A stretch of DNA of 64,000 nt from a virus (taxonomy: Duplodnaviria > Heunggongvirae > Uroviricota > Caudoviricetes), in the IMG/VR virus record IMGVR_UViG_3300045988_149282, positions 32,001 to 96,000 of that record, one strand, 5' to 3'. Positions 1-32,002 of this stretch are shown piece by piece. Every line of letters begins with the position of its first letter. Position 1 is the stretch's first letter. A program made the position numbers and the translations under genes. Under the pieces are notes generated by a model. It searched no databases. It had not been told where the DNA came from and saw nothing but the letters and a program-made list of their open reading frames with translations.

Positions 1-3000
1 CTGGCCTGATCTATCAGGAGAAAAATGCTCGTATCACCGCCGATGCTGCGGAAGCGAGTGCGCGTGAATCCCTGCAGACTGAATTCAACAGAAACAAAGC
101 CTCTGTTGCAGAAGAGCTGCATACGCTGTCCACTGAACAAGCTTCCCAGGCAAGCAAGATTACCGGGTTGCAAACAAGCCTTGGCCAGAAGGCCGATGCC
201 AGTGCAGTACAGACAATTTCCCAGAAGGTTGAAGAGCAGGGCAACACCCTTAAATCACAAGGTGCGGCATTGTCTACGCTGGATAATCGCGTAGGAAGTG
301 TTGAGTCTGGTGTATCTGCGAATAGCAAGGCGATCACGGGTCTGCAGTCGACCGTAACCCAGCAGGATAAAACCCTTAGCAGCCAGAGTGAAAGCATCAC
401 CACCCTGAATAACTCGCTGAGCGATATCCAGAGCGATACCGATACTGCCAAAAGCAACCCGAGTAATTTGCTGGTTAACGCCTCCTTTGAGCGTGACCTG
501 GCAGGGTGGTCTGCAGGGAACAGCGTATCCAATGTTATCAAAGCGAGCGCGCCCCATTCTGGTAGCAAAATTCTTGTTTGCGCCGCTGGCACGGTGCAAA
601 TCACGCAATCTGTAAGCGTCGTCGAAGGGCGGACATACAAGCTGTCCTCTTTTGTGCGGTGCACCACTGATGCGGTGATCAGCAGCCCTGGCAACAACAA
701 ACTGCGTATTGGCGCGGCTACGTTGCTCAAAGAGATTCCGATCCGTCCGGAGAATCTGCCCAAAGATGAAACATGGAAGGAGGTCTCTGATACCTGGAAG
801 GCGACGCTGACCGGTAAAGTTGACGTATCGATCATGTCTTCTCTCAAAACCGGTTCTCAGTACTTCGATGATGTTGGTTTTGTTGACGTCACTGATGCTC
901 TGGCGATTGAGGCGAACGCCAGTGCCACCAATGCTTTGACCTCTCGGGTATCGTCTGTTGAGGGCACCATCACAAGTCAGGGGCAACAGATCACTTCGAT
1001 GCAGAACAGTATCAAGAACAAAGCTGACGCCTCAGCTGTGACTAATCTGGCAAACCGCGTAACTGCTGCCGAAAATCAGATCTCCAGCCAGTCCCAGAGC
1101 ATCACCAGCCTGTCAAATTCGCTGGATAACGCCAATGCTGATGCGGATGCCTCGAAAGCGATCATCGGCAACATGCTCAAAAACAACTCTTTTGAACGTG
1201 GTTTCGAAGGTTGGGAGTATGTTGGTTGGACTCTGCTGGAGGCCCAAAACCCCAAATCGGGGAAATACATCATCCAGGCGGGCAAACTGGCCTCTGGCGG
1301 TGACTCGGGCTGCAACCAAACGATCGAGCTGCAGGCTGGCAAGACTTATCGTATCGGCGCATGGGTTCGCAAATCCGCTGACTTCGCGATTAATAATGCC
1401 GGCAACAACAAAATTAGCCTTCGAAACGCAGATCTTACGCCAATAAAGGATATCCCGATCACTGGCGCCGGGCTGTCGACGAACTGGGCGCTTATTAGCG
1501 GCGAGTATACGCCAGCCAAAACCGCGAGCGTGGTTGTGTCTCTGCGCGCAAGTGTCGCTTCAGGCTATATGTATCTCGATGACGTCTTCTGCGTTGACGT
1601 GAGCAATGAGAAAGCGATTGATGCGACGTCCAATGCGTTATCAACCCTCAACAGCACCGTGACCCAGCAGGGAAAAGACATTACGTCTAACTCCAACAGC
1701 ATCACTTCGCTGTCAAACCAGATGGTTAACGGCCGCCAGAACATGTGGGTGCGTAGCGTATACAACGTACAACTGGCGAACAATACCACTGAGCCGACCT
1801 TTAGCGATATCAACGGTAAGGCGCCAATCTCGATCGATGAGGTTCCTGACGCGGCAAAACTGGACTTTGCGAGCGCCGGCAGTTACGTGATCGCGCATTA
1901 CAAAGCCTTCGTGAAAGTCAATGCTGATACCACCATCACTATGGCACCAGGGTCTCGTGTTTTTGATGATACGGGCGCCGTGTACGTGAACGGTGTTAGG
2001 GTTGCCTTTGGTAATGCGAGCTGGAATACGGTTAGCTTTGATCTGAAAGCTGGCTGGAGCACGGTTGAGTTCTTGGTGAACCAATGGACTGGTCAGGCTT
2101 ACATTAACCTCGGCTTTAAACTGTCCGAGAAGGTAGCCCAGCTGAATTCTGCTCTTGGGATGAACGCGCTTTCGAATGCCATTAGCGCCGTCACCTCAAA
2201 CGTCAGCACCGTAGGTGATCGCGTCACGAGCACCTCGCAGAGCGTTACTGATCTGCGAAACAGCCTCGAACAGACCAACGCTAATCTGGCGAATAAGGCA
2301 GATGCACAGGCGCTGTCTACGCTGCAAAATACGGTCTCCAAGCAGGGGGATACGATTTCCAGCCAGGGTAACAGCATCACGAACCTGAATAACACCCTGA
2401 CCGCTGCCAGAAACTCCGGTGACAACCTGATCCCGAACTACGATTTCCTGCAGGGTGCAACTGCGTGGGATATCCAGTATCCGGCGGGCGTCGCTTTCGG
2501 CAACTTCGGTGATGGTAAGGCTGGGGTTAAACTGAACCGGACGACCACTACCAGCCCAGGCATCTTCTCCAACAACAACAAGCCGCTGCCGCTTAATGGT
2601 CAGCGCAAATATCGTGTTGTGGTTAAAGCCAAGGGCGTGTCCGGGGCGATGAACATGTTGATCCGGCGCCAGAACAAAATCGGCCAGACCGACAGCAATT
2701 ATGAAGATAAAAACGTCACACTCACCAGTGAGTGGCAGACCATTACCTGGGAAACTGGGCTTACTGCCTCTAACGCTGATGGTCAGAACTTTAAGCTTTA
2801 TGCGCACCCGGCTAATGCCGAAATCTGGGTTGATACCTTTAAGGTCTTTGATATCACGGATGAGGTGAAGATCAAGGCTAATAGCGATGCGCTGTCTACG
2901 TTGTCGAGCACGGTGACACAGCAGGGTGACAAGATCACCAGCCAGGGCAACAGCATCACTAAGTTGACCAATGACCTCGAGGCCGCTGACGCAAACATCG

Positions 3001-6000
3001 CGAAAAAGGCCGATCAGTCGGCAGTCACTACGCTGACAGGTCGGGTAGAGAAGACGGAGTCCGGTCTGACGGCGGCGAACAGCAACATTACGTCGCTTAG
3101 CAGCTCTCTGAGCCAGCAATCCAAACGCGGCGCTAATCTGCTTCCTGATGGCACTTTTGAAAGCTACGCGGTTGGCCATAATCTATCAAATAATCGCGTT
3201 ATCGTTACCACTGATGACTCTCACGGTGGAAATAAGTGCATCCGTGTGACGCGTCCGAACGACTACAACGCCAACGCAACAGATAACAGCGATAACCATA
3301 TTTTTAGCGGATTTCAGGTTCGCGATAACGCAGTGTTCTACATGGAGTGCTGGGTTAAGCTGGATGCCAATAGCACAGCCATGGCCGAGAACACGCAGAT
3401 CTCTATCGGTTTGTCGCTCCAGTATCAGGATAACTCGTGGCAGTGGCCGGCAGTAACTAAAGCTGCGAAAGATCTGTCTACAGCTCAATGGACGAAGGTT
3501 TCTGGTTACCTGAAATCAACGAAGAGCGGTATTAAGCAGGCAATGGTGAGGATTTCTATTCCTAACGTTAGCAGCGTTAAGGCGGGAAACTCATTCCTTA
3601 TTGATGACCTGGTCATTACCGAAGTAACTGATGCCTACAATGCGCAAAGTACAGCAGATGCTAACGCCAATGCGATTTCGACACTGGACTCGACCGTTTC
3701 CCAACAGGGCGACCAGATCACCAGTCAGGGTAACAGCATCACCAAACTGACAAATGACCTGGCAACGACCAATAACAACGTCAGTAAAAAAGCGGATCAG
3801 AGCGCTTTAAGCGTGTTGTCCGGGCGCGTCGATCAAACAGAATCGGGCTTATCCTCTGCGAATAGCAGTATCACTGCGCTTAATTCATCTGTACGCGCAG
3901 GGAATGCGACAAGTGGCGATTTGATTAGCAACCCGACATTTGACCCAGAGTTTAGTCAGATGGGCTTCACTGTGGTTCCCAGCTCGTCTGAGGGCGTGCC
4001 AGCCAATTGCCCATACGCTTATGTTGCACGCATTGCGGCTCGCGACCATCACCCAAATTTTGCTGCTATTCCGGCGACATTGGGGGATGTCTATGAAATG
4101 TCTGCTCTCGTCGCGTGTGGCACTGGCTCCGCTGATTTCAACCTGTATCTCGGAACCGCAACACGGCCAAGCGGCAGCGTGGGCGCGCCTCTGTCATCTG
4201 GCGGCAACCGCAAGGCGTCGGCCACATGGCAGCGAGTAACCTGGCGTTTCAAAATTACTCAGGGGATTGTCGATCGCGGCTTCTTCCGTCCATTCCTGCA
4301 AATCAACCAGTCCAGCCCGTTCGGCACCGTCTGGTATGTGACCGACTGGCATCTGCGGAACGTAACCGACTCCTCCAAAGTTCAGGATTCTCTCGATGCT
4401 ACGGCGAAAGCGGTTGATTCGCTGACCTCTACGGTAAATCAGCAGGGGGAGAATATCTCCAGCATTGGTACACGTACTACCAATCTTGAGAATAATTTGA
4501 GAACAACAAATGCAAACGTTGCTCAAAAAGCGGACGCCAATGCTCTGACGGCACTGACCAACCGTGTTACCCAGACCGAAAAAGACATTAACTCAACGAG
4601 TTCTTCTGTCACGAATCTGAACAACAAGGTTGATGCAATTTCTGTCGGCGGTACAAACCTGATCAAGAACTCCGGCGATATGACCGGCTGGTCGAACGTT
4701 GTCAGCGATACGTATCGTGGTAACGCGGTAATTGGCGCAACTGTAAAAGCCGGCTCCGGTTACAGGGATTTGCGGGAAATCACGCTTGAGTCGCCGGTCG
4801 ATGCAGGTGAGTACGTTTACAGCTTCTATGCGAAAGGCGGTGTTGCTGGCCAGATTATGACGGCGTTCTTCTACAATCCGAACACTACAACGTCTATCGA
4901 GACCAGCCAGGGTGCGAAGGGTAACAACAGTGATGGCCGTGCGCAGTTCACGCTGACCACTTCATGGGCCCGCTATTGGGTTAAGTGGAAACAGACACCT
5001 ACCACGAGTACCAAGCGCCTGATTCTGTGTCGTATCGAGAGCAATACCTCCAAAGACCAGACGGTGTACATCAACAGTCCGAAGTTTGAGGTAGGTAACG
5101 TTGTTTCCGACTGGAACGAGTCTCCGTCTGATAGTGCCAGTGCGTCGGCTGTGGACTCGCTGACAACGAAAGTGAATCAGCAGGGCACTTCCATTAGCTC
5201 TATCGGAAATCGCACCACATCGTTGGAAAACGGGTTATCGACAGCTCAAAACAACATTGCCAAGAAGGCTGATGCTTCTGCATTGCAGGATCTCCGGAAC
5301 ACGGTGACATCTCAGGGTGATGATTTAACCGCGGCGAACAGCAGCATTACCAGCCTGCATGCCTCGATGAACCGTCGCACTGTGTTTACTGTCACTGCAC
5401 GGGGTAATGGCAACAGCGTTACCCATGGGGTGTTTGATGAAAGCGGCAAGAATCTGTTTACCCCTGGTCGCAGCTGGGCGCTGGTCACTTTTGCAAAACA
5501 CAGCGACGGATCAACGGTGATTGCGACCTCCAAAACATACGATGTCTTTGGCAGCGCGAATAATGGCGCCACGATGTCGGCTGATATCGAGGCACTGGCC
5601 AGTGGGACTTACGTTTGCGTCCTGACATTCGATGAGCCAACTGGCAACCGAGGTAAGGTGTTGTCTGCCCTGGAATCTCTTGGTGGCACTTCCGAAGTCG
5701 TTAACTCTCTGCCGTATCGTGGCGCCTACATTCTCCTTGGCCGCAAAGGTATGAAGCCGGGCGATGGTCTGGAACTGCGTGCGCCAACCGGTGGCGACGG
5801 CACCGCCCACATTTCGACCTCAGTCGAGTTTGTGAACGGGGTAATGATGGGGCTGGGCGCCGCTGGTGGTGTGATGATGAAGGCTGATGCGAACGCATCT
5901 GCAATTACCACGCTCCAGAATACAGTGAAGACCCAAGGGGATAATATTGACTCCCTGAGCTCCTCGACAACAGCGCTGGAAAACAGCCTTGCGTCCAGTA

Positions 6001-8456
6001 ACGCCAGCGTGGATGCAGCAAGCCAGATCCCCGGTAACCTGATCGTAAACCCGTCTTTTGAGCGTGGTACGGAGGGCTACACTGGTTGGAGCGGTATTGC
6101 CACGGTGGCAACGCTGCAGGTTCCACATCTTGGCACCAAAGCCGCCAAACTAGCGGCGGGTGGTTCTGCAGGCGTGGGCCAGAAGATCTCCTTCAAAAAG
6201 GATCGGTCGTACAAAATTGGTATTTGGGCAAAGCAGGACCCTAATACCACCATTCAGTCGACCGACAACACAAAATTCCGTGTGGCTGACGGTACTGGCC
6301 TGATTGCAAGTAAGGTTTATGGTCCGTTCACCTCGAACTGGCAGGAGGTGTCATGGACATGGAAGGCGACAAAGGATGTCCTTGCTGACGTTCAGTTCAC
6401 TGCTTTCTTGTCAGCCGGCGCGATGTACTTTGATGATTTTTACGTCGTCGATGTGACCGACTCAGTTGAAACTCAGGCGAACTCGAGTGCGATCACGAAG
6501 CTCGATAGTCGTGTGACCAAGACAGAGAATGACATCACCAGCCAGGGCAGCCAGGTTACGCAACTTAAGAATGACCTTGCTACCACAAACACAAATGTTT
6601 CGAAGAAAGCGGATGCAGCTGCGTTAACGGCATTAACGAACCGCGTCACGCAGAATGAGAAAGAAATTGGAACCCAGAGCAGCCAGACAACTTCGCTCAA
6701 AAACTCTTTGAGCACTGTTCAGGCAATGGGAAGCAACCCGTGGTTTGATGGTTCTCTGGAGACGTACTCCGAAAACCAGCAGATCAGCGGCTCGCGCGCG
6801 GTCGTCGTCAGCTCTCAGAAACGAAGCGGAACGAAGTCGTTGCGTGTTTCCCGCGGCGCCGGTGAGGGCGGAAACAGCGATAAAACCATCGGTAAGTGGA
6901 TTGCTCTGCGTGAAAATGCGGTATTCCGCATTGAACTCTGGGCGATGATGCCGGCAGATCAGTCGCCATCATCCGGGTGGTCAACGCTCGTTGGTTTGCA
7001 GACCCAAAACGCTGCCAACAACAATAACTGGCCGACGGCAATCACTATCAATGAAGCCGCATTGGGTGCAAGAGGCGCATGGAAGAAATTCACCGGTACG
7101 CTCCGTGTAGCCGCTGGCCACACTCGCGGCGCATTTTGGGTATCTACCCGCGGCACAACTGGCACTGGTACACCGGGGTATGATCTGTATATCGATGACG
7201 TTGTTGTCACCGATATCACCGACGCAAAAGAGGCTCAAGATTCGGCTAATTCGAACGCATCCGCGCTCACCAGCCTTACCTCACGTGTTACCAATGTAGA
7301 AGGGCAGGTGACATCCCAGGCGTCTCAGCTGTCCTCTTTGACGTCCCAGGTGAATGATGCGTCTTCGAAGGTTGATCAGATGGCGCAAACCATCACCAAC
7401 AACGAGAAAACGCAGTCGTCGCTGAATACCAGCTTGCAGTCGCAAATTGATGCGCAGGCATCGGCAAACATCAAGAACCAGACGGAGTTGAATAACGCCA
7501 CCACTTCGATGGCGGCAATTAAATCAACTCAGCAGACTCAGGCCACAACGATTAGTGCACTGTCTCAGCAGCAAACGAATTTAACGGCCCAGGTAGGAGG
7601 CCAGTCAGCCGAGCTGCAGGAGCTGAAGAAAACGGTTGTTGAAAACGGCAACGTTAACAGCACCTGGATGGTCAAAATGGAAACCAACAGCAACGGTAAA
7701 AAGTATGCTGCTGGTATAGCTTTAGGTATCGATGGCAAAAATTTGCAGAGCCAGTTTCTGGTTCAGACTGATCGCTTCGGCTTAATCAACACCTCTAACG
7801 GGAATACGACTACACCTTTCGTTATCGAAAATGGCGTTGCGTATATTAATGCCGCTGTCATTAAAGATGGCTCGATCACCAATGCGAAAATTGGAGGCGA
7901 AATCCGTTCTGACAATTTCGTTAATGGTTCAAATGGCTGGAGAATTGGAAAAGACGGTAGTTCACAGTTCAACAATGCGATATTCAGAGGTCATATTGAA
8001 GCGCGCAGTGGTACGTTCAAAGGAACCCTGGAAGCTCAAAACTTTATTGGTGATATCGCTGTAGCTCGGCGTTATGCGGGTTTATCGTTCCGTCGTAACA
8101 ACACCGTACAGCGTGATGGTCGTTACCAGAACCGCGGATACGGTATGACTATTGTGCTAAGTTGCACCCTGATATATCAGGTTACTGGGGGGAATGAGGA
8201 TCGTAACGGTTATATTGTTGAAATGACATTTAACGTTGGCGGTCAGGAGGCAACTCGCAGTTTCCCGATCAACCCGCGAATGAATATGGGCTCCTACTCG
8301 ATGGAGTTTCGTTTTGCAGCGGATATTCCAGGCAACTATGACAACGTCCCGTTCTTTGTAAGAGCACGTGGTCGGGATGCTACTTGGAACTACCAGTGTT
8401 ATGTAGAAAACATCACTGCCACTGCTTTCCGTACAAACAGCAACTCATTCAGCTAA
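1..8456 (+). CDS. Giant tail fiber protein, 5' end probably outside the window; coiled-coil segments alternating with carbohydrate-binding-module-like domains
   Basis: Single reading frame ending at TAA 8454-8456 and still open back to nt 3 with the same repeat pattern. About 8 recurrences of heptad-like A/S/T/Q-rich stretches followed by an N-x-S-F-E-R-G-x-E-G-W type signature. C-terminal fiber-tip-like region. Confidence 0.8.
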   Translation, partial: GLIYQEKNARITADAAEASARESLQTEFNRNKASVAEELHTLSTEQASQASKITGLQTSLGQKADASAVQTISQKVEEQGNTLKSQGAALSTLDNRVGSVESGVSANSKAITGLQSTVTQQDKTLSSQSESITTLNNSLSDIQSDTDTAKSNPSNLLVNASFERDLAGWSAGNSVSNVIKASAPHSGSKILVCAAGTVQITQSVSVVEGRTYKLSSFVRCTTDAVISSPGNNKLRIGAATLLKEIPIRPENLPKDETWKEVSDTWKATLTGKVDVSIMSSLKTGSQYFDDVGFVDVTDALAIEANASATNALTSRVSSVEGTITSQGQQITSMQNSIKNKADASAVTNLANRVTAAENQISSQSQSITSLSNSLDNANADADASKAIIGNMLKNNSFERGFEGWEYVGWTLLEAQNPKSGKYIIQAGKLASGGDSGCNQTIELQAGKTYRIGAWVRKSADFAINNAGNNKISLRNADLTPIKDIPITGAGLSTNWALISGEYTPAKTASVVVSLRASVASGYMYLDDVFCVDVSNEKAIDATSNALSTLNSTVTQQGKDITSNSNSITSLSNQMVNGRQNMWVRSVYNVQLANNTTEPTFSDINGKAPISIDEVPDAAKLDFASAGSYVIAHYKAFVKVNADTTITMAPGSRVFDDTGAVYVNGVRVAFGNASWNTVSFDLKAGWSTVEFLVNQWTGQAYINLGFKLSEKVAQLNSALGMNALSNAISAVTSNVSTVGDRVTSTSQSVTDLRNSLEQTNANLANKADAQALSTLQNTVSKQGDTISSQGNSITNLNNTLTAARNSGDNLIPNYDFLQGATAWDIQYPAGVAFGNFGDGKAGVKLNRTTTTSPGIFSNNNKPLPLNGQRKYRVVVKAKGVSGAMNMLIRRQNKIGQTDSNYEDKNVTLTSEWQTITWETGLTASNADGQNFKLYAHPANAEIWVDTFKVFDITDEVKIKANSDALSTLSSTVTQQGDKITSQGNSITKLTNDLEAADANIAKKADQSAVTTLTGRVEKTESGLTAANSNITSLSSSLSQQSKRGANLLPDGTFESYAVGHNLSNNRVIVTTDDSHGGNKCIRVTRPNDYNANATDNSDNHIFSGFQVRDNAVFYMECWVKLDANSTAMAENTQISIGLSLQYQDNSWQWPAVTKAAKDLSTAQWTKVSGYLKSTKSGIKQAMVRISIPNVSSVKAGNSFLIDDLVITEVTDAYNAQSTADANANAISTLDSTVSQQGDQITSQGNSITKLTNDLATTNNNVSKKADQSALSVLSGRVDQTESGLSSANSSITALNSSVRAGNATSGDLISNPTFDPEFSQMGFTVVPSSSEGVPANCPYAYVARIAARDHHPNFAAIPATLGDVYEMSALVACGTGSADFNLYLGTATRPSGSVGAPLSSGGNRKASATWQRVTWRFKITQGIVDRGFFRPFLQINQSSPFGTVWYVTDWHLRNVTDSSKVQDSLDATAKAVDSLTSTVNQQGENISSIGTRTTNLENNLRTTNANVAQKADANALTALTNRVTQTEKDINSTSSSVTNLNNKVDAISVGGTNLIKNSGDMTGWSNVVSDTYRGNAVIGATVKAGSGYRDLREITLESPVDAGEYVYSFYAKGGVAGQIMTAFFYNPNTTTSIETSQGAKGNNSDGRAQFTLTTSWARYWVKWKQTPTTSTKRLILCRIESNTSKDQTVYINSPKFEVGNVVSDWNESPSDSASASAVDSLTTKVNQQGTSISSIGNRTTSLENGLSTAQNNIAKKADASALQDLRNTVTSQGDDLTAANSSITSLHASMNRRTVFTVTARGNGNSVTHGVFDESGKNLFTPGRSWALVTFAKHSDGSTVIATSKTYDVFGSANNGATMSADIEALASGTYVCVLTFDEPTGNRGKVLSALESLGGTSEVVNSLPYRGAYILLGRKGMKPGDGLELRAPTGGDGTAHISTSVEFVNGVMMGLGAAGGVMMKADANASAITTLQNTVKTQGDNIDSLSSSTTALENSLASSNASVDAASQIPGNLIVNPSFERGTEGYTGWSGIATVATLQVPHLGTKAAKLAAGGSAGVGQKISFKKDRSYKIGIWAKQDPNTTIQSTDNTKFRVADGTGLIASKVYGPFTSNWQEVSWTWKATKDVLADVQFTAFLSAGAMYFDDFYVVDVTDSVETQANSSAITKLDSRVTKTENDITSQGSQVTQLKNDLATTNTNVSKKADAAALTALTNRVTQNEKEIGTQSSQTTSLKNSLSTVQAMGSNPWFDGSLETYSENQQISGSRAVVVSSQKRSGTKSLRVSRGAGEGGNSDKTIGKWIALRENAVFRIELWAMMPADQSPSSGWSTLVGLQTQNAANNNNWPTAITINEAALGARGAWKKFTGTLRVAAGHTRGAFWVSTRGTTGTGTPGYDLYIDDVVVTDITDAKEAQDSANSNASALTSLTSRVTNVEGQVTSQASQLSSLTSQVNDASSKVDQMAQTITNNEKTQSSLNTSLQSQIDAQASANIKNQTELNNATTSMAAIKSTQQTQATTISALSQQQTNLTAQVGGQSAELQELKKTVVENGNVNSTWMVKMETNSNGKKYAAGIALGIDGKNLQSQFLVQTDRFGLINTSNGNTTTPFVIENGVAYINAAVIKDGSITNAKIGGEIRSDNFVNGSNGWRIGKDGSSQFNNAIFRGHIEARSGTFKGTLEAQNFIGDIAVARRYAGLSFRRNNTVQRDGRYQNRGYGMTIVLSCTLIYQVTGGNEDRNGYIVEMTFNVGGQEATRSFPINPRMNMGSYSMEFRFAADIPGNYDNVPFFVRARGRDATWNYQCYVENITATAFRTNSNSFS

Positions 8457-8512: not shown

Positions 8513-9952
8513 ATGGCAATGTATGAAGTTGGCACCATAACGGGTGCTGCAAACCAGGCAAAGGTTACAGGTATTTCCACTAAGTGGTCGGAGACCGCCC
8601 TGGGTATTCAAGAGGGTTCGATTCTTGTCATTTATCGCAATGGAAGTGCCGATCTGTATGCCATCAAATCCGTTAATAACGACACTCAACTGACCCTGAC
8701 GAGAAACATTACAACAGCTTTTTCTGGTGCGAAATATGGAATTATCACATCAGAAACAGCCAGCACATCGTCTTTTGCTAATCAACTCGCCAGTGCATTC
8801 ACTCTGTGGCGTAATGTTGTCCAGGGGTGGTCTACAGCACTAACAGGTAGTGGCAATATTACAATAACAGACCCTTTAACGGGTGTATCTGTGACTGTTC
8901 CAGCAATTTCAGGAATGGCGAAAGCGTCCGATCTCACAGCACTTAGCAACTCGCTGAAAGATGTAGCGAAGACTACAACGGCAAACACATGGACGCAGGC
9001 GCAGACGTGGAACGCAGCATCTACGTTTAAAAATAACCTTACGGTGAACGGCACTTTTACAGTAAATGGGAATTTCTACGGCAAGCAGCTTGCTGGAGGC
9101 CACATAGAGTTAACAGGGGCGACCCCTTATATCGACTTTCACCACGGCAACACCACAACAGACTACACACATCGAATTATTACTGAGAATGGGGCATTGG
9201 CTGTTTATCCGGGCTTACGCGTCCGTGGTGGATTGGGGATTTATGGTGTAGCTACGCAATACGGAGATCAGTACGGGCAGGGATTTATCACCCGTCTTAA
9301 CACAGATCCAGGTAACGTAGCTAACGGCACAATCATTGCCTCTCCACGCGTCACAACTAGGTTCAACACTCGCGGCAGTGACACAAATGTTGACGGCGGA
9401 CAGGGGGCCATGTGGTTTGAGGAGCAGGTGGGGACGAACCATAGGCTGGTATTCATGCTTGGTGGTTTCAGTCAGCCTGTCCAATATTGGCACCACTTGC
9501 CTGATGGGCGGATCTATAGTAGTTCTCGCGGCGATGTTGCATTTAACGGGACGTCCGACGAACGGTTGAAACATAGTATAGAACCGACTGACGGCCATTT
9601 GTCAGTCGATCGCATTCGTCAGCTTGAGCTGGTGACGTTCGTCTATAACGATGACGAGCAGGAACGAGTACGCCGCGGGATTATTGCGCAGCAGGCTCAG
9701 CTGGTCGACAAACAGTATGTTAAGCAGATTAACACATCGTATATTCTCAACGGTGAGAAAGTGGACGATGACCGTCTGCAACTCGATAATAACGTTATTC
9801 TAATGGATACATTGGCGGCGGTTAAAGTACTGATTCAGCGAGTTGAAGAACTTGAGAATAAACTTAACTCATCAGAAGGGAGCGACGCCATAAATACAAA
9901 CCAGAATACCTTCGATACAGGCGTGGCCATGAGAAGTGAGCAATCAAATTAA
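8513..9952 (+). CDS. Tail fiber/tailspike protein with C-terminal intramolecular chaperone (peptidase S74-like) domain
   Basis: ATG 8513 with AGGAAG ribosome-binding site. C-terminal SDERLKHSIEP...coiled-coil signature typical of self-cleaving chaperone domains of phage fibers; HxH-containing fiber region. Confidence 0.75.
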   Translation: MAMYEVGTITGAANQAKVTGISTKWSETALGIQEGSILVIYRNGSADLYAIKSVNNDTQLTLTRNITTAFSGAKYGIITSETASTSSFANQLASAFTLWRNVVQGWSTALTGSGNITITDPLTGVSVTVPAISGMAKASDLTALSNSLKDVAKTTTANTWTQAQTWNAASTFKNNLTVNGTFTVNGNFYGKQLAGGHIELTGATPYIDFHHGNTTTDYTHRIITENGALAVYPGLRVRGGLGIYGVATQYGDQYGQGFITRLNTDPGNVANGTIIASPRVTTRFNTRGSDTNVDGGQGAMWFEEQVGTNHRLVFMLGGFSQPVQYWHHLPDGRIYSSSRGDVAFNGTSDERLKHSIEPTDGHLSVDRIRQLELVTFVYNDDEQERVRRGIIAQQAQLVDKQYVKQINTSYILNGEKVDDDRLQLDNNVILMDTLAAVKVLIQRVEELENKLNSSEGSDAINTNQNTFDTGVAMRSEQSN

Positions 9953-10042
9953 TTCAATTCGTATGTAAGTGCTTACCTACAATTAGTTTCTAATTTATGA
10001 TATAAATCTGCCATCCGATTTGACTTATTCATGGAGGAAGAC

Positions 10043-10366
10043 ATGTCAAACGAGATGGCAGGCGTGACGCCAGAGCAGGTGGAGCGCATTGCCGCAATTG
10101 TTGCGCGAGAAGTCGTAGGAAAATTAAGTAAGGAGCTTCGCGATGATATTGGCCAGGAGGTCAACGATCAGCTGCGAACCTACTTTGGCGATATGACTCC
10201 GGCGCAACATAGCATTCAGCATTCCAACCTGGACAAACTTCTTAATCGGCTCGACACGATTTCAAGCGGGTTCTTTGGAGGCATTATTTCCAAGATTACC
10301 TCGTTCCTGATCACCGTGCTGCTTTTGGGTTTGGCCGCTTATGGCGTGAAAAATGGACTGCAATAA
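10043..10366 (+). CDS. Holin-like small membrane protein
   Basis: GGAGGA ribosome-binding site before ATG 10043; about 107 aa with one C-terminal transmembrane helix; first gene of the lysis cassette. Function inferred from position. Confidence 0.4.
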   Translation: MSNEMAGVTPEQVERIAAIVAREVVGKLSKELRDDIGQEVNDQLRTYFGDMTPAQHSIQHSNLDKLLNRLDTISSGFFGGIISKITSFLITVLLLGLAAYGVKNGLQ

Positions 10367-10379
10367 CAGGAGAACAAGG

Positions 10380-11072
10380 ATGAGTACTCCAAGAGGCATT
10401 CGTAACAACAACCCTGGCAACCTGGATAAAGGGTCGCCGTGGCAAGGGTTAGTAAACAACCCGTCGGAACCGCGGTTCTGTACTTTTAAAGACCCCGTAT
10501 GGGGGATTCGAGCACTGACAGTAACGCTCATCACCTACCATGATAAGCGCCGTGCAAAAGATGGCTCCAGCATCGATACGATCCGCGAAGTCATCGAGCG
10601 TTGGGCGCCGCCACACGAAAACAACACCGCCGCCTATATCAATGAGGTTTCTAAAGCCGTTGGCGTGACGCCGGACATGATCATCGATCTGCATGACTAC
10701 AATACTATGCGGCCGCTGGTGGAGGCGATTATTCGTCATGAGAACGGTCGTGGCCCTTTGAAAACACTCAACAGCTGGTATTCGGCCGAAGTTATTGACG
10801 AAGGTATGCGTCGCGCCGGCGTCGTTAAACCGGTAACTGCAGTGAAAGCCGTACCTGTCACGAAAGAAACTGCAGGCGCAACGGTGACTGCAGGTATCGG
10901 TATTGCGCAGCTGGCGGACGTAATGCCGCAGATCTCCGTTGCGATGGATAAGGCCCAGGGACATATTACCAGCGGGGATACCGTTCGCATTATCTTCGGT
11001 ATTGCGACCATTGTTGTCGCCGGCTTTATTGCCTGGTCGCAAGTTCGTAAGCATCAGGCAGGAGTGGTGTAA
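10380..11072 (+). CDS. Putative endolysin/cell-wall hydrolase with C-terminal membrane anchor
   Basis: AGGAGA ribosome-binding site then ATG 10380; N-terminal RNNNPGN motif region; hydrophobic C-terminal tail; sits between the holin-like gene and the spanin pair. Catalytic family not recognised. Confidence 0.4.
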   Translation: MSTPRGIRNNNPGNLDKGSPWQGLVNNPSEPRFCTFKDPVWGIRALTVTLITYHDKRRAKDGSSIDTIREVIERWAPPHENNTAAYINEVSKAVGVTPDMIIDLHDYNTMRPLVEAIIRHENGRGPLKTLNSWYSAEVIDEGMRRAGVVKPVTAVKAVPVTKETAGATVTAGIGIAQLADVMPQISVAMDKAQGHITSGDTVRIIFGIATIVVAGFIAWSQVRKHQAGVV

Positions 11073-11074
11073 CC

Positions 11075-11326
11075 ATGAACGGCAGCCTGCTTTCAAAGGT
11101 CAAATCGACCATCATGACTTTGGCTGCCGTCTTCTCTGTGCTCGTTGGGGCGTACACCTGGGGTGGACGTGCTGCCCGGCGGGCCATGGAAGAAAAGGCG
11201 CAGAGAGAAACCAACAAACGGCTTCAAGGCACAGTGGATGTGAAAAATGAGACGATTAATGAAGTCAGGACTAAGGATGCTTCTGCCGTTCATCGCGAGC
11301 TTCGCGATAAGTGGATGCGTGATTAA
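11075..11326 (+). CDS. i-spanin-like (Rz-like) protein
   Basis: ATG 2 nt after upstream stop; N-terminal transmembrane helix followed by a charged coiled-coil-like segment. Confidence 0.5.
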   Translation: MNGSLLSKVKSTIMTLAAVFSVLVGAYTWGGRAARRAMEEKAQRETNKRLQGTVDVKNETINEVRTKDASAVHRELRDKWMRD

Positions 11327-11474
11327 ACCCCAGACCGTGGGCGTACAATTCTGCGATGGGGCTAACCCTATCTACATCAGCAAGGACGACGCCCTGACAG
11401 AAGAAACTGAGAGGGAAATCCTGATCCACAACACGCTGGGTGAGCGAATCTGTGATTGGGGGAAAGGTACATAA
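11247..11474 (+). CDS. o-spanin-like (Rz1-like) lipoprotein, overlapping the i-spanin gene in another frame
   Basis: Signal peptide with lipobox AISGC; starts inside and extends beyond the i-spanin frame (overlapped spanin architecture). Confidence 0.5.
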   Translation: MRRLMKSGLRMLLPFIASFAISGCVIKPQTVGVQFCDGANPIYISKDDALTEETEREILIHNTLGERICDWGKGT

Positions 11475-11486
11475 GGAACTGACGTA

Positions 11487-11525
11487 AGATGCGCTTGCGT
11501 TGATGTGAGGCGCATCTGTTTCTTC
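11487..11525 (+). terminator. Hairpin plus T-rich tract after lysis cassette
   Basis: AGATGCGC ... GCGCATCT stem followed by GTTTCTTCT. Confidence 0.45.
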
Positions 11526-11715
11526 TATCTGTAATCGAGTAAATGCCGTCATCCAAGTTCACCGAACTTGATTATTCTTCACCGAACTTCACTCAAGGTA
11601 ATCTTGAATCATCCTGCTTAATGATGTAGATTTAACCAACAGCTGACGATGTCGTCAGCCGTTAGACCTGAAAAGGTGCCGCAATGACACTTGTGTTAAC
11701 GGCTAAGGTGGATAT

Positions 11716-12135
11716 ATGCTAAATTATCATGACAATACGCGTTCTATGCAGACGATCCGCACCAATACTGCGGTTATCGACAGCTTTCCTATGCGTATTC
11801 ACAACAGTGAAGACGCAGTAGAAGTGCGACGTATGTTGTGCCGTGAATCAGCTAACCGCCAGCACTTCATCGTCACTTTTAAGAGCGATGTGGCGCGTGC
11901 CGAAAAGATCTCTAATTCTACGTCACTGGTTAAACCGTTGGCCGAGGTTGTCACTAACGGTAAACGAACCTCTTTTGTTTTAGATGTTGCTGAACAATAT
12001 CCTGACTTGAAGTGTTTAGATCGTGATATTTCTTCACGAATCAAACAAGTTGTAGAGTCTTTTATGAAGAAATTCTGTAAAATCGATGATATGGAACCAT
12101 CAACGGCACAGAATACTTCATGGCACCATCTCTAA
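11716..12135 (+). CDS. Hypothetical protein (139 aa)
   Basis: GGTGGA ribosome-binding site 6 nt before ATG; no recognisable motif. Confidence 0.6.
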   Translation: MLNYHDNTRSMQTIRTNTAVIDSFPMRIHNSEDAVEVRRMLCRESANRQHFIVTFKSDVARAEKISNSTSLVKPLAEVVTNGKRTSFVLDVAEQYPDLKCLDRDISSRIKQVVESFMKKFCKIDDMEPSTAQNTSWHHL

Positions 12136-12893
12136 TTGGTCAGGCGAACAGATTAATCCCTGAAATAGAAGACTACAGCAAGGTCTTGTCTGAAATGCCG
12201 AGAGCGACGAGAATTATCGCTCTCGGTGAGTTCTATTTTATCTCCCGAGGTTTCGATCTAATTCGATTTACCGAATACGAGCTTGTTGATTCGGCCTATG
12301 AACGCTGTATTGTTGGCGAGTGTCTTGAGTCATGTGATCCTGATTACCAAGAGCAGGAAGTTAAGCGACTCAAACGTGCTGGTTACACACCTCTTGAGAT
12401 AGGAGCAGAAATTGAATCCTACAAGTTGCATGTGGGGCAGCCAGTCCAAACAGTCTTCCGCGTGGCCTACTGCGAGTTTCCAATCAAGGATAAATCTGGA
12501 GTAAAAGTCAGCGCCAAGCAGATTAGAGGGGTTTTTACTCATGCTGATTATATGGGATTAGGCATCGCAAGTTTTGCTTACCTTTATCTCGTAGATAAGT
12601 ATCAGTACTTGGTTTGCGATACGTTACAGACGGTAAAAGGCGCAACTCTTTGGGCTGTGAGTATGCGCAAACATGGACTGGTCGAAATTTACGATACGAA
12701 GAACGAAAATTTTATAGAGGAATTGGGTGAGGATGCCTGTGGCGTAAGTGGTTTTATTCCGTGGGATATCGGTAAGTCTGACGGAGGCCAGATGCGAAGA
12801 CGTGAAGAGTGGGGGACTAATAAAATCAATCTCACCCCAGGTGCTTGTACTCATATAGTGAACATTCTGAGTAAACGATCTATGAATCAATAA
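12120..12893 (+). CDS. Hypothetical protein, possible GNAT-like acetyltransferase fold in C-terminal half
   Basis: Overlaps upstream gene by 16 nt (operon-like). Segment DYMGLGIASFAYLYLV...ATLWAVSMRKHG resembles GNAT motif A/B by eye only. Start uncertain (alternative ATG 12195). Confidence 0.5.
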   Translation: MAPSLIGQANRLIPEIEDYSKVLSEMPRATRIIALGEFYFISRGFDLIRFTEYELVDSAYERCIVGECLESCDPDYQEQEVKRLKRAGYTPLEIGAEIESYKLHVGQPVQTVFRVAYCEFPIKDKSGVKVSAKQIRGVFTHADYMGLGIASFAYLYLVDKYQYLVCDTLQTVKGATLWAVSMRKHGLVEIYDTKNENFIEELGEDACGVSGFIPWDIGKSDGGQMRRREEWGTNKINLTPGACTHIVNILSKRSMNQ

Positions 12894-12915
12894 ACCCGCT
12901 ACGGCGGGTTTTTTG
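12893..12915 (+). terminator. Rho-independent terminator
   Basis: CCCGC-tacg-GCGGG hairpin followed by TTTTTT. Confidence 0.7.
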
Positions 12916-12993
12916 TTATTAAGCCCACCTATGTACCTATCATTAAACCTTTACACCGCAGCCGTAGGCATTTAGGCTATATCACATATAAGA

Positions 12994-13006
12994 AAACAAG
13001 TTGTTT
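12994..13006. promoter_or_regulatory. AAACAA-N-TTGTTT palindromic site upstream of parA-like gene
   Basis: Perfect 6+1+6 palindrome; same motif recurs upstream of at least five other genes. Confidence 0.45.
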
Positions 13007-13041
13007 CAGACGATAATTATATACGCAAAGGGAACTCTCCA

Positions 13042-13710
13042 ATGACCAAGATCTTTGTGGTTGGCGGCACAAAGGGCGGGCCTGGCAAATCCACCGTTGC
13101 CCAGCAAATTGCCGTTTGCCTGAAAGTCAAAAAGAAGAAGAAGGTTTATATTACCGATATAGATATTCAGCGCACGACAACGAGCTGGTGTGAAGACCGT
13201 CGACAGAACGAAGACCTTGAGCTGATTCCTTTTGCATACGTTCAGGATGACATCATTAAGCACCTAAAATCGCTTCAGGGTAGAGCTGAGTTTGTAGTGG
13301 TAGATGCTGGTGGCTTCGACTCCGAAATTCAGCGACAAGCGATGCTGATGGCTGACGTTATCATTATCCCGCTGCGTCCTAAGCGTCGTGATTTGAAATC
13401 TTTACGTGACATCGATCCTATTATCGACAATGTTCGCAATGTAAACGATAAAGTGAAGGTCCGCGCGGTCATGAACCAGTGCCCGGCTTTGCCATCACAA
13501 GTGTCTCGCATTCTGGCGGCTAAAGAGATTGTTGAGACGTTTGGCATCGAGTCTGCGCCAGTCAATCTATATAACCGCAACGTCTATGATGATGCGGAAG
13601 AGTCTGGTCGCTCTATCTTTGAAATGACCGGTAGCGAGCGCGACAAAAAGGCGGAAGCCGAGTTTGAAGAATTTGTAGATTATCTGTTGAGTCTGGAGGA
13701 AGAAGAATAA
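13042..13710 (+). CDS. parA: ParA/ParF-type partition ATPase
   Basis: Deviant Walker A GGTKGGPGKST at N-terminus; 222 aa, small ParA class without N-terminal helix-turn-helix. Confidence 0.85.
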   Translation: MTKIFVVGGTKGGPGKSTVAQQIAVCLKVKKKKKVYITDIDIQRTTTSWCEDRRQNEDLELIPFAYVQDDIIKHLKSLQGRAEFVVVDAGGFDSEIQRQAMLMADVIIIPLRPKRRDLKSLRDIDPIIDNVRNVNDKVKVRAVMNQCPALPSQVSRILAAKEIVETFGIESAPVNLYNRNVYDDAEESGRSIFEMTGSERDKKAEAEFEEFVDYLLSLEEEE

Positions 13711-14121: not shown

Positions 14122-14889
14122 TTATGCCGCGCTAACACTATGTTCAGTCCTAACCACCCCAACCTTCACAAAAGGGCTACCGTAGCTTGGTGGCTTCTTG
14201 ATTAATTTGCCTACATACAGTTTTCTAATATGCTCATCGGCTATTCTGCCAACAAATTCATAACGTTTTGTGTCGGGGCCAAGAGCTATATCCCTTGTAA
14301 AGTACTGCTGAGAACCGGCTTTGACCCAGCATTCAATCTGATAAACTTCCATTATCAGCCCACCATATGTAGCGTAGGCATATTTGAGATTCTCGTCTCT
14401 TGGAACCTTTGCCCATACGCCACGCGTAGCTTCATATAATGCCAGAGCGGACATTCCTGACTTGTAGGTGCTGTTTAGCAGGAAGGCAAGACCGGCGTGC
14501 TCAGGAGCAATTTCAGTTTCCTCTTGCAGCACTAAGTGATGGTAGGCGTCCAGTGATATTCTGCCCATCATGGAACCACTTCCTCGTACCTTATTCGTAA
14601 GCTCTCCGACCCCCATAAGGTCGATGCATGTCGCCTCAACAAGTTTGGCTGTGGTTTCATCCATACCATGACGAAGTATATCTATGCCTAATTTTTTATT
14701 AGCCAAAAGTTCTTTGATCCGCATGGATTTGGGAGAGTCATCGGGATACTTGATGTGATCGAGACAACGAGTCGATTTGCCTTTTCCTATGTAAAACGGT
14801 CTTTTCATCTTGTCTTCTGTATCATAGAGACAGTAAACATAGTATTTAGCCTTATCCAATGATCTCGCGTATACCGATAAATCGTCCAT
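14122..14889 (-). CDS. GIY-YIG-like nuclease domain protein (homing-endonuclease-like or defence-type nuclease)
   Basis: N-terminal YVYCLYD...PFYIGKGKSTR matches the GIY-(10)-YIG-R signature; about 160 aa C-terminal domain of unknown type; antisense to flanking operons. Confidence 0.55.
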   Translation of the reverse strand: MDDLSVYARSLDKAKYYVYCLYDTEDKMKRPFYIGKGKSTRCLDHIKYPDDSPKSMRIKELLANKKLGIDILRHGMDETTAKLVEATCIDLMGVGELTNKVRGSGSMMGRISLDAYHHLVLQEETEIAPEHAGLAFLLNSTYKSGMSALALYEATRGVWAKVPRDENLKYAYATYGGLIMEVYQIECWVKAGSQQYFTRDIALGPDTKRYEFVGRIADEHIRKLYVGKLIKKPPSYGSPFVKVGVVRTEHSVSAA

Positions 14890-32000: not shown

Positions 32001-32002
32001 TC

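Follow-up and report, generated by a model that had tools for sequence, protein, structure and literature searches.

The DNA analysed here, called the window below, is a 64,000-nucleotide stretch (positions 32,001 to 96,000) of the IMG/VR virus record IMGVR_UViG_3300045988_149282, and is part of an SSU5-like phage-plasmid of Escherichia coli. Our subject is a pair of overlapping genes in this window, g1 and g2, that lies between the lysis genes and the partition gene parA. The region 11500-13100 is 99.9% identical to plasmids NZ_CP019283 and NZ_CP019002, and the flanks of the pair resemble Salmonella phage SSU5, Escherichia phages PhiR41_1 and Cyrano, and Klebsiella phage-plasmids. An initial annotation, made from the letters of the DNA alone, had described two open reading frames (ORFs) of 139 and 257 amino acids with a 16-nt overlap, situated at a module boundary. 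Both statements proved correct: the overlap occupies 12120-12135, SSU5-type lysis homologues lie upstream of the pair, and ParA with a small partner lies downstream. The features of the locus are the following, in window coordinates.

10031-11474: genes for holin, endolysin and Rz/Rz1 (SSU5 homologues), directly upstream of g1-g2
11487-11517, plus strand: terminator-like hairpin with arms AGATGCGC/GCGCATCT and a T-rich tail, just after the Rz1-like ORF
11554-11570: second, weaker terminator-like hairpin with a T-rich tail, after the Rz1-like ORF
11604-11632, plus strand: promoter-like element read from the sequence, TTGAAT (11604-11609), 17-nt spacer, TAGATT (11627-11632)
11638-11663, plus strand: near-perfect 26-bp palindrome AACAGCTGACGA-TG-TCGTCAGCCGTT, directly after the -10 box
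11697-11712, plus strand: conserved leader end with a Shine-Dalgarno sequence (TAACGGCTAAGGTGGA)
11716-12135, plus strand: g1 ORF, 139 amino acids, ATG start
12120-12135, plus strand: overlap of g1 and g2, 16 nt
12120-12893, plus strand: g2 ORF, 257 amino acids, ATG start
12892-12921, plus strand: intrinsic terminator AAACCCGC-TACG-GCGGGTTT with a T-run, the right-hand boundary of the exchangeable cassette
13042-13710: ParA gene (Pfam MipZ/AAA_31/CbiA), downstream of g2
after ParA: small gene for the ParA partner, 119 amino acids

The promoter-like site, the conserved leader, the coupled genes and the terminator establish g1-g2 as an autonomous operon. The promoter-like site agrees with the consensus at 8 of 12 positions, which is under the threshold of the consensus scan, so it was not reported there; its layout, TTGnnn-17-GTAGATTT, is kept in seven aligned upstream regions carrying it (those of the window, SSU5, PhiR41_1 and our loci L029/L030, L016 and L018), all with divergent coding alleles. 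The leader end, GGCTAAGGTGGA-N3-ATG, is nearly identical in DNA among enterobacterial alleles whose proteins are only ~30% identical. The start codon of g2 sits within a Trp codon context of the g1 tail, and the overlap indicates translational coupling of the two genes. The downstream terminator is strong, with an 8-bp stem containing five GC pairs (12892-12911) followed by TTTTGTTATT, and the hairpin at 11487-11517 is the probable end of the lysis transcript. The proposal that terminators bracket the operon therefore stood on the downstream side and only partly on the upstream side, where hairpins follow the Rz1-like ORF but the hairpin nearest to the operon, the palindrome at 11638-11663, is not followed by a T-run. 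This palindrome, which forms a hairpin in the RNA fold, was rejected as an intrinsic terminator because it lacks the T-run; it is a candidate operator or 5' RNA hairpin. In L018 both of its arms are altered (GTTGACGA/TCGTCAAC), with the symmetry preserved.

The leader and the sequence before it contain two further elements. The right palindrome arm, AGCCGTTA (11657-11664), can alternatively pair with TAACGGCT (11697-11704), immediately 5' of the Shine-Dalgarno sequence, and this alternative pairing could be a switch controlling g1 translation. The 5' leader folds marginally better than its shuffles (z = -1.8), and an Rfam search of the g1-g2 region returned no family. A perfect 12-nt direct repeat, TTCACCGAACTT, occurs at 11558-11569 and 11578-11589 with 20-nt spacing; possible readings are a recombination scar and an iteron bound by a protein. 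The repeat belongs to a stretch, located between the Rz1-like ORF and the cassette, that the window shares with p13P484A-3 and that SSU5, PhiR41_1 and Cyrano lack.

Comparison with relatives showed that g1-g2 is replaceable cargo in the lysis-parA slot of SSU5-like phage-plasmids. The holin, endolysin, ParA, ParA partner and orf249 proteins of the window are 89-100% identical to those of SSU5 and PhiR41_1; for g1 the identities to these two phages are 61% and 31%, and for g2 they are 36% and 32%, respectively. The DNA identity drops just after the Rz1-like ORF (~11470) and returns by ~12940, and one set of plasmids has the allele of the window from 11675 onwards. In the alignment with SSU5, an island of 82-87% DNA identity extends over the first ~60 codons of g1, which points to a recombination breakpoint inside this gene. 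A tblastn search of PLSDB with g2 matched 18 records at 99% identity or more and 356 at less than 60%; since no match fell between these values, the g2 alleles are discrete and deeply diverged. In phage Cyrano (pLF82) and ~143 plasmids, the slot contains a canonical GNAT toxin with a TacA1/DUF1778 antitoxin on the opposite strand (3491-4325 of locus L027, the equivalent of window 11700-12900). In pJN2-26 and ~98 plasmids, the same interval (3731-4288 of locus L028) contains one protein of 185 amino acids (pI 4.2, net charge -21) that matches nothing in Pfam and is a possible DNA-mimic or anti-defence candidate. The suggestion that the operon is accessory cargo at a module boundary was thus supported: relatives that are otherwise nearly identical differ in the content of the slot, not all of them have the pair, and the pair carries no structural annotation.

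Both proteins are direct members of PHROG families annotated as 'unknown function'. The g1 protein matches phrog_2594 (E 1.3e-35; residues 1-120 on profile positions 1-112 of 118) and g2 matches phrog_3307 (E 3e-54; residues 17-252 on profile positions 7-240 of 241); our literature search found no paper on these two families, on SSU5_031/032 or on the RefSeq accessions. Because of these matches, and because homologues down to about 20-30% identity retain the pairing, we regard g1 and g2 as real genes. An exhaustive profile search of 1.84 billion representative proteins returned only 41 g2 clusters at E<=1e-3, so the g2 family is small, and a word-index search with the g1 alignment returned 77 g1 proteins. 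The family alignments of g1 and g2 contain no conserved stretch of 7-10 residues; a search with a degenerate DNA pattern retrieved nine genome loci (two of them spurious) and three viral loci. A g1-type gene of 106-141 codons stands immediately upstream of g2 in every locus for which upstream DNA was available, and in Aliagarivorans and Thalassotalea this gene is g1-like by its motifs. In all 13 pairs compared, a basic g1 (pI 8.5-9.65) accompanies an acidic g2 (pI 4.45-5.5, net charge -5 to -19).

The taxonomic range of the pair is the Gammaproteobacteria, and its genomic contexts are varied. It occurs in SSU5, PhiR41_1 and other phage-plasmids, in lambdoid PhiR12 phages adjoining int, in metagenome contigs where its neighbour is an integrase that has an AHH nuclease module or is a HEPN RiboL-PSP gene, in a Rouxiella P2-like prophage, in contigs of Moellerella, Enterobacter and further Rouxiella, and in Acinetobacter baumannii on 110-kb plasmids and on the 9-kb OXA-72 plasmid pAba9201a. 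Homologues are housed in the P2-like gpA-gpQ (old/tin) region, adjoining the portal and terminase genes in L012 and downstream of Phage_GPA in L035/L036. The gpA-gpQ region of P2 is a hotspot of anti-phage systems (Rousset et al. 2022, PMC9122126), and in the related defence hotspots of P4 satellites, six of eight tested loci of unknown function protect against phages (2026 study, PMC13586616); the location of the family in validated defence hotspots or islands is recurrent, at few loci. Like the cargo of the P2 hotspot (old, tin; PMC9122126), g1-g2 is compact, exchanged among temperate elements and flanked by core genes, and two P2-like prophages carry its homologues in that very hotspot. Unlike the P2 hotspot, the SSU5-type slot is often filled by alleles of one family and not by a full mix of unrelated systems. 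In an enterobacterial chromosome, yciK and sohB flank the cassette, which is inserted there alone, away from any other mobile-element gene (the gene names were read from the Pfam pattern, rluB-btuR-yciK on one side and sohB-yciN-topA on the other); this solo insertion is TA-like (toxin-antitoxin-like) behaviour.

On pAba9201a, the pair (L025, 6946-8019, minus strand) encodes proteins of 106 and 244 amino acids and lies on a mobilisable RepM plasmid with blaOXA-72, and the module thus travels together with a carbapenemase plasmid; in total, 112 Acinetobacter plasmid records gave tblastn matches to g2.

Several copies of g2 are disrupted. In five PhiR12 phage records (listed hosts E. coli laboratory strains), g2 is frameshifted at ~residue 66, and g1 is intact in PhiR12_5, the one record in which it is seen whole; g1 alone is therefore tolerated, and g2 is dispensable for phage growth. 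Three independent homologues (L038, 2953-3848; L037, 143-910; L035, 2983-3405) are split or truncated at the same profile position, ~123-137, which is the junction between the N- and C-terminal arms of the GNAT-like fold. The g1 gene is intact in L038 and L035/L036, where it is seen whole, and is cut by the contig end in L037. 'Toxin decay' was rejected as clean support for g2 toxicity, as three of the four disrupted genes break at this arm boundary.

The g2 protein of the window has a pI of 5.5 (4.45-5.2 in its homologues) and is predicted to be GNAT-like, at the level of the fold only. Its AlphaFold2 model, built from a 32-sequence alignment, has a pLDDT of 90.9 and a pTM of 0.86, and the order of its elements is beta-beta-beta-alpha-alpha-beta-beta-alpha-beta-alpha-beta-beta. 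We judged this model to agree with the GNAT fold, defined as beta1-alpha1-alpha2-beta2-4-alpha3-beta5-alpha4-beta6-7 with a V-shaped split between beta4 and beta5. In a Foldseek search of the PDB, all of the best 50 matches were GNAT-fold proteins, with weak scores (E 2.5e-3 to 5e-2, TM 0.2-0.4); among them were Eis-like proteins, the ICL2 acetyl-CoA-binding domain, AAC(2')-Ia, Naa10/Naa50/Ard1, alpha-TAT1, SSAT and EctA. The best matches in BFVD had E values of 2.8e-5 to 6.5e-4 and included NAT_SF proteins of uncultured phages, and sub-threshold matches to Pfam Acetyltransf_1/_10 were found in 3 of the 32 family members (best E 0.007). Two segments of g2 resemble the GNAT motifs.

Residues 138-VFTHADYMGLGIASFAY-154: motif-A-like segment of g2
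Residues 166-CDTLQTVKGATLW-178: motif-B-like segment of g2

In the model, the strand 129-140 ending in KQIRGVFTH leads through DYMGLGIA (motif-A-like) into the helix 149-161, and the strand 163-165 leads through [S/C]166-D167-x-x-Q170-[T/S]171-x-x-G-A-x-L-W178 (motif-B-like) into the helix 172-184. The consensus of GNAT motif A, in the beta4-alpha3 loop that binds the CoA pyrophosphate, is Q/R-x-x-G-x-G/A; g2 of the window has Y-M-G-L-G-I-A at 144-150, and 30 of the 32 members have A, G, S or T at position 150. Invariant residues are P3, Q134, Y154, D167, Q170, W178 and W215. The first ~28 residues are poorly modelled (pLDDT 54-59) yet include Pro3, which is invariant, and Lys21 and Leu23, which nearly are. 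Since Pro3 persists in PhiR41_1 and Acinetobacter, where the two genes have no overlap, the constraint on it acts at the protein level. The resemblance to GNAT motifs A and B noted in the initial annotation thus holds for the predicted fold and the motif pattern and not for a significant sequence-profile match; a GNAT-like fold was indeed predicted. With its best structural neighbours, the GNATs acting on polycations or proteins (Eis, AAC(2')-Ia, SSAT, Naa10/Naa50, alpha-TAT1, the ICL2 C-terminal domain), g2 shares acidity and the arrangement of beta4, motif-A loop, alpha3, beta5 and alpha4. It differs from them in that the similarity is low (TM 0.2-0.4, identity 8-18%), in its N-terminal part, which consists of three strands before alpha1 and the conserved 28-residue peptide with the invariant Pro3, and in a motif-A glycine that is not universal in the family.

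The g1 protein is basic (pI 8.5). In its model (pLDDT 80.6), a beta-rich core is followed by a long helix (96-120) and a disordered tail. The N-terminal core is conserved, with the motifs RSIQTIR, FIVTFK, VKPLAE and KQYPEL, and the C-terminal part formed by the helix and the tail is variable; the conserved 'KWxLH' of the tail is a by-product of dual coding with the N-terminus of g2. The g1 profile had no meaningful match among PDB sequences, a Pfam scan of g1 and 32 homologues gave no consistent match, and NCBIfam held nothing usable for g1. An assignment of g1 to the RHH/DUF1778 (TacA1) antitoxins was rejected, as no consistent Pfam match and no PDB sequence or fold match was obtained. The top PDB-sequence matches of the g2 and g1 profiles (PPR repeat, TPR, IgA receptor) were dismissed as chance, and a duplication or a split domain was discarded, since hhalign of g1 against g2 revealed no relation.

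The GNAT toxin-antitoxin pair in the Cyrano slot served as a positive control for family membership. The Cyrano toxin (173 amino acids, pI 8.7) matches Acetyltransf_7, _1, _10 and FR47, and its antitoxin (pI 6.1) matches TacA1 at 8e-26. Canonical TacAT/KacAT/AtaRT toxins have ~160-175 residues and match Acetyltransf_1/7/10, a description that g2 does not fit, and hhalign of the g2 profile against the KacT-like toxin of Cyrano gave a non-significant probability of 0.5%. Like the GNAT/RHH type II systems (TacAT, KacAT, AtaRT, ItaRT), g1-g2 consists of a small upstream gene that overlaps, and is coupled to, a larger gene for a protein with a GNAT-type fold, it is borne on plasmids and prophages, and a true member of these systems occupies the same lysis-parA slot (Cyrano/pLF82, ~143 plasmids). 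Unlike in these systems, g2 has no significant GNAT profile match, is ~85 residues longer and strongly acidic, g1 lacks RHH/DUF1778 (TacA1) and has an unrecognised fold, and the charge polarity of the pair is reversed. The link to GNAT toxins that acetylate aminoacyl-tRNA, raised in the initial annotation, was not supported, given the absence of a profile match, the length of 257 amino acids, the acidity and a partner that is not RHH/DUF1778; likewise, we rejected membership of g2 in the TacT/KacT/AtaT toxin family on the missing profile match, the different partner, the greater length and the reversed charge. The missing membership lowers the claim of a TacT-like TA system and not that of a toxin-antidote or defence pair, and a toxin-antidote-like logic is plausible by context, not by family membership.

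We observed the pairing and the cassette behaviour and predicted the GNAT fold; all functional roles of the two genes are inferred. The most likely use of the pair is in conflict among mobile elements and not in phage assembly or replication; it would be a GNAT-based two-gene conflict module with an unrelated partner and probably a different target. We tentatively favour, with somewhat less than even confidence, a toxin-antidote-type conflict cassette, serving exclusion, defence and/or stabilisation, in which g2 would be the GNAT-fold effector and g1 its cognate controller. This explanation draws on the obligate pairing, the cassette behaviour, the presence of a TA pair in the same slot, the conflict contexts, the GNAT-like fold, the operator-like palindrome and the tolerance of g1 where g2 is not full-length. 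In the toxin-antidote mechanism that we envisage, g2 would be a highly divergent acidic GNAT-fold transferase dependent on acyl-CoA, with a candidate active site comprising the invariant Q134, Y154, [S/C]166-D167, Q170-[T/S]171 and W178. Because g2 is acidic, its target would more likely be a basic protein or polyamine-like molecule than tRNA. As the cognate partner, g1, a small basic protein whose fold is novel, whose core is conserved and whose C-terminal helix and tail vary, would restrain g2 and possibly repress the operon through the promoter palindrome. The benefit could lie in excluding rival phages or plasmids and/or in post-segregational stabilisation, and the discrete, deeply diverged alleles would keep each pair private to its element. 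It is possible, although we regard it as rather doubtful, that g1-g2 represents an unrecognised two-gene exclusion or immunity family of Gammaproteobacterial mobile elements, with an acidic divergent GNAT-fold acyltransferase acting on a basic-protein or polyamine-type target and not on tRNA, a basic partner of novel fold that controls it, and discrete alleles without cross-reaction, through which related phage-plasmids and prophages would compete among themselves and against incoming phages.

Several results weigh against a toxin-antidote cassette with a GNAT-fold effector. The g2 protein had no match in Pfam and NCBIfam at E<=10, the best GNAT match of its family profile among PDB sequences had an E of 1.7 and the core-only profile had none, the Foldseek scores were weak (best PDB E 2.5e-3, TM 0.2-0.4), and the motif-A glycine G148 is present in only 21 of the 32 members. 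For g1, the fold search of the PDB gave a best E of 0.34 and no consistent fold, with no DNA-binding or antitoxin fold recognised. The small protein of the pair is basic and the large one acidic, opposite to the polarity of the canonical GNAT TA of the same slot. Unlike catalogued cargo of the P2 hotspot, neither g1 nor g2 is homologous to PADLOC v2 systems, with no match to any PADLOC-DB v2 model at E<=10. The alike breaks in three of the four disrupted g2 genes may mark functional two-polypeptide splits rather than pseudogenes or toxin decay. Finally, the 185-residue occupant of the slot seems closer to an anti-defence protein, and therefore position alone does not discriminate between functions.

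This last observation bears on a counter-defence role, in which g2, aided or regulated by g1, would inactivate an immune protein of the host or of a rival through acetylation or binding, and the allelic diversity of the pair would reflect an arms race against host defences that vary. AcrVA5 acetylates Cas12a. The strong acidity of g2 in 13 of 13 pairs (net charge -5 to -19) and of the alternative slot protein (pI 4.2) is consistent with such a role, as are the deep allelic divergence in a conserved backbone, which fits antagonistic coevolution, and the need of the carriers (phage-plasmids, temperate phages, mobilisable plasmids) to establish in new hosts. However, an obligate coupled pair, a solo chromosomal insertion and a place in the P2 old/tin hotspot are more typical of defence or TA systems, and no likeness to a known anti-defence protein came up, although no anti-defence profile library was searched; we therefore consider counter-defence unlikely. 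A bona fide GNAT/RHH type II system of the TacAT/KacAT/AtaRT kind, with g2 acetylating aminoacyl-tRNA, g1 acting as antitoxin and autorepressor, and post-segregational killing as the outcome, appears improbable. It would account for the overlapping small-then-large gene order, the adjoining parA, the true KacT/TacA pair in the slot of relatives, the GNAT-like fold predicted for g2 and the palindrome at a promoter-like site, but not for the lack of a Pfam/NCBIfam GNAT match in g2, where the Cyrano toxin matches four GNAT-clan families, nor for the hhalign probability of 0.5% between the two. Moreover, g2 has 257 residues and an acidity unfavourable for tRNA binding, where the canonical toxin has 173 residues and a pI of 8.7, and g1 lacks both TacA1/DUF1778/RHH and a fold match.

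The structural neighbours Eis, AAC(2'), SSAT and EctA are acidic GNATs that act on polycationic small molecules, and the invariant polar residues of g2 are compatible with the active site of an enzyme. These points would suit a lysogenic-conversion or housekeeping enzyme that acetylates a small molecule (a polyamine, an aminoglycoside-like compound or a sugar nucleotide) with g1 as an accessory subunit and no toxin or immunity logic. Discrete alleles of ~30% identity in a 90-100% identical backbone are, however, rare for such enzymes, and so is an obligate, co-diversifying small partner; in addition, the contexts of the pair are conflict loci and not metabolic ones. We rate a small-molecule enzyme as improbable too. 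That the genes encode late-expressed accessory proteins of the phage, helpers of lysis or virion assembly that follow the lysis cassette, is barely credible. The pair directly follows the lysis genes on their strand, and fills this position in many SSU5-like elements. Yet hundreds of relatives have a TA pair or an unrelated opposite-strand gene in the slot, the pair is also found on non-phage plasmids of 9 kb and by itself in a chromosome, and PhiR12 phage records with E. coli laboratory strains as listed hosts have a frameshifted g2. Moreover, a promoter-like element belongs to the operon itself, and terminator-like hairpins stand between it and the lysis genes. A structural or lysis role of g1-g2 was accordingly rejected.

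Beyond the lysis genes and the partition locus, the window contains these neighbouring genes.

8513-9952: tail fibre gene with a Peptidase_S74 chaperone domain, upstream of the lysis genes
14122-14889, minus strand: GIY-YIG gene, after the gene for the ParA partner
beyond the GIY-YIG gene: DnaB-like helicase gene

The GIY-YIG protein has 255 amino acids and a LEM-3-like nuclease domain (Pfam E 5.5e-7). The gene is shared with PhiR41_1, but SSU5, Cyrano and p13P484A-3 have other genes at this place, so that a second slot of variable content seems to exist downstream of the partition locus. At 168-8456 on the plus strand, a single ORF of 2762 amino acids runs off the start of the window; it is the counterpart of the ~12-kb gene annotated as 'phage tail protein' in p13P484A-3.

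Among clinical E. coli, Klebsiella, Salmonella and Shigella, SSU5-like phage-plasmids are common, and ~600 plasmid records share the backbone of the window. The only related phenotype that our literature search found is that of an SSU5-like plasmid of Klebsiella, which reduces both the uptake of plasmids and the burst of phages, an effect described for the whole plasmid and unmapped to a gene. The slot between the lysis genes and parA is a defined exchange point in these elements, occupied by a GNAT TA pair, an acidic orphan protein or one of many g1-g2 alleles. If g2 were a counter-defence enzyme, it would be an acetyltransferase-type inhibitor of unusually wide distribution. Should g1-g2 prove to be a module of the toxin-antidote or defence type, GNAT-based conflict systems would gain a new partner architecture and probably a new class of target, and a function would be given to two PHROG families annotated as unknown and to a gene pair on OXA-72 carbapenemase plasmids of A. 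baumannii. The pair is widespread in clinically relevant phage-plasmids and Acinetobacter resistance plasmids and is experimentally tractable; as a toxin-antidote or defence module, it would help to explain the stability and mutual exclusion of phage-plasmids that circulate together.

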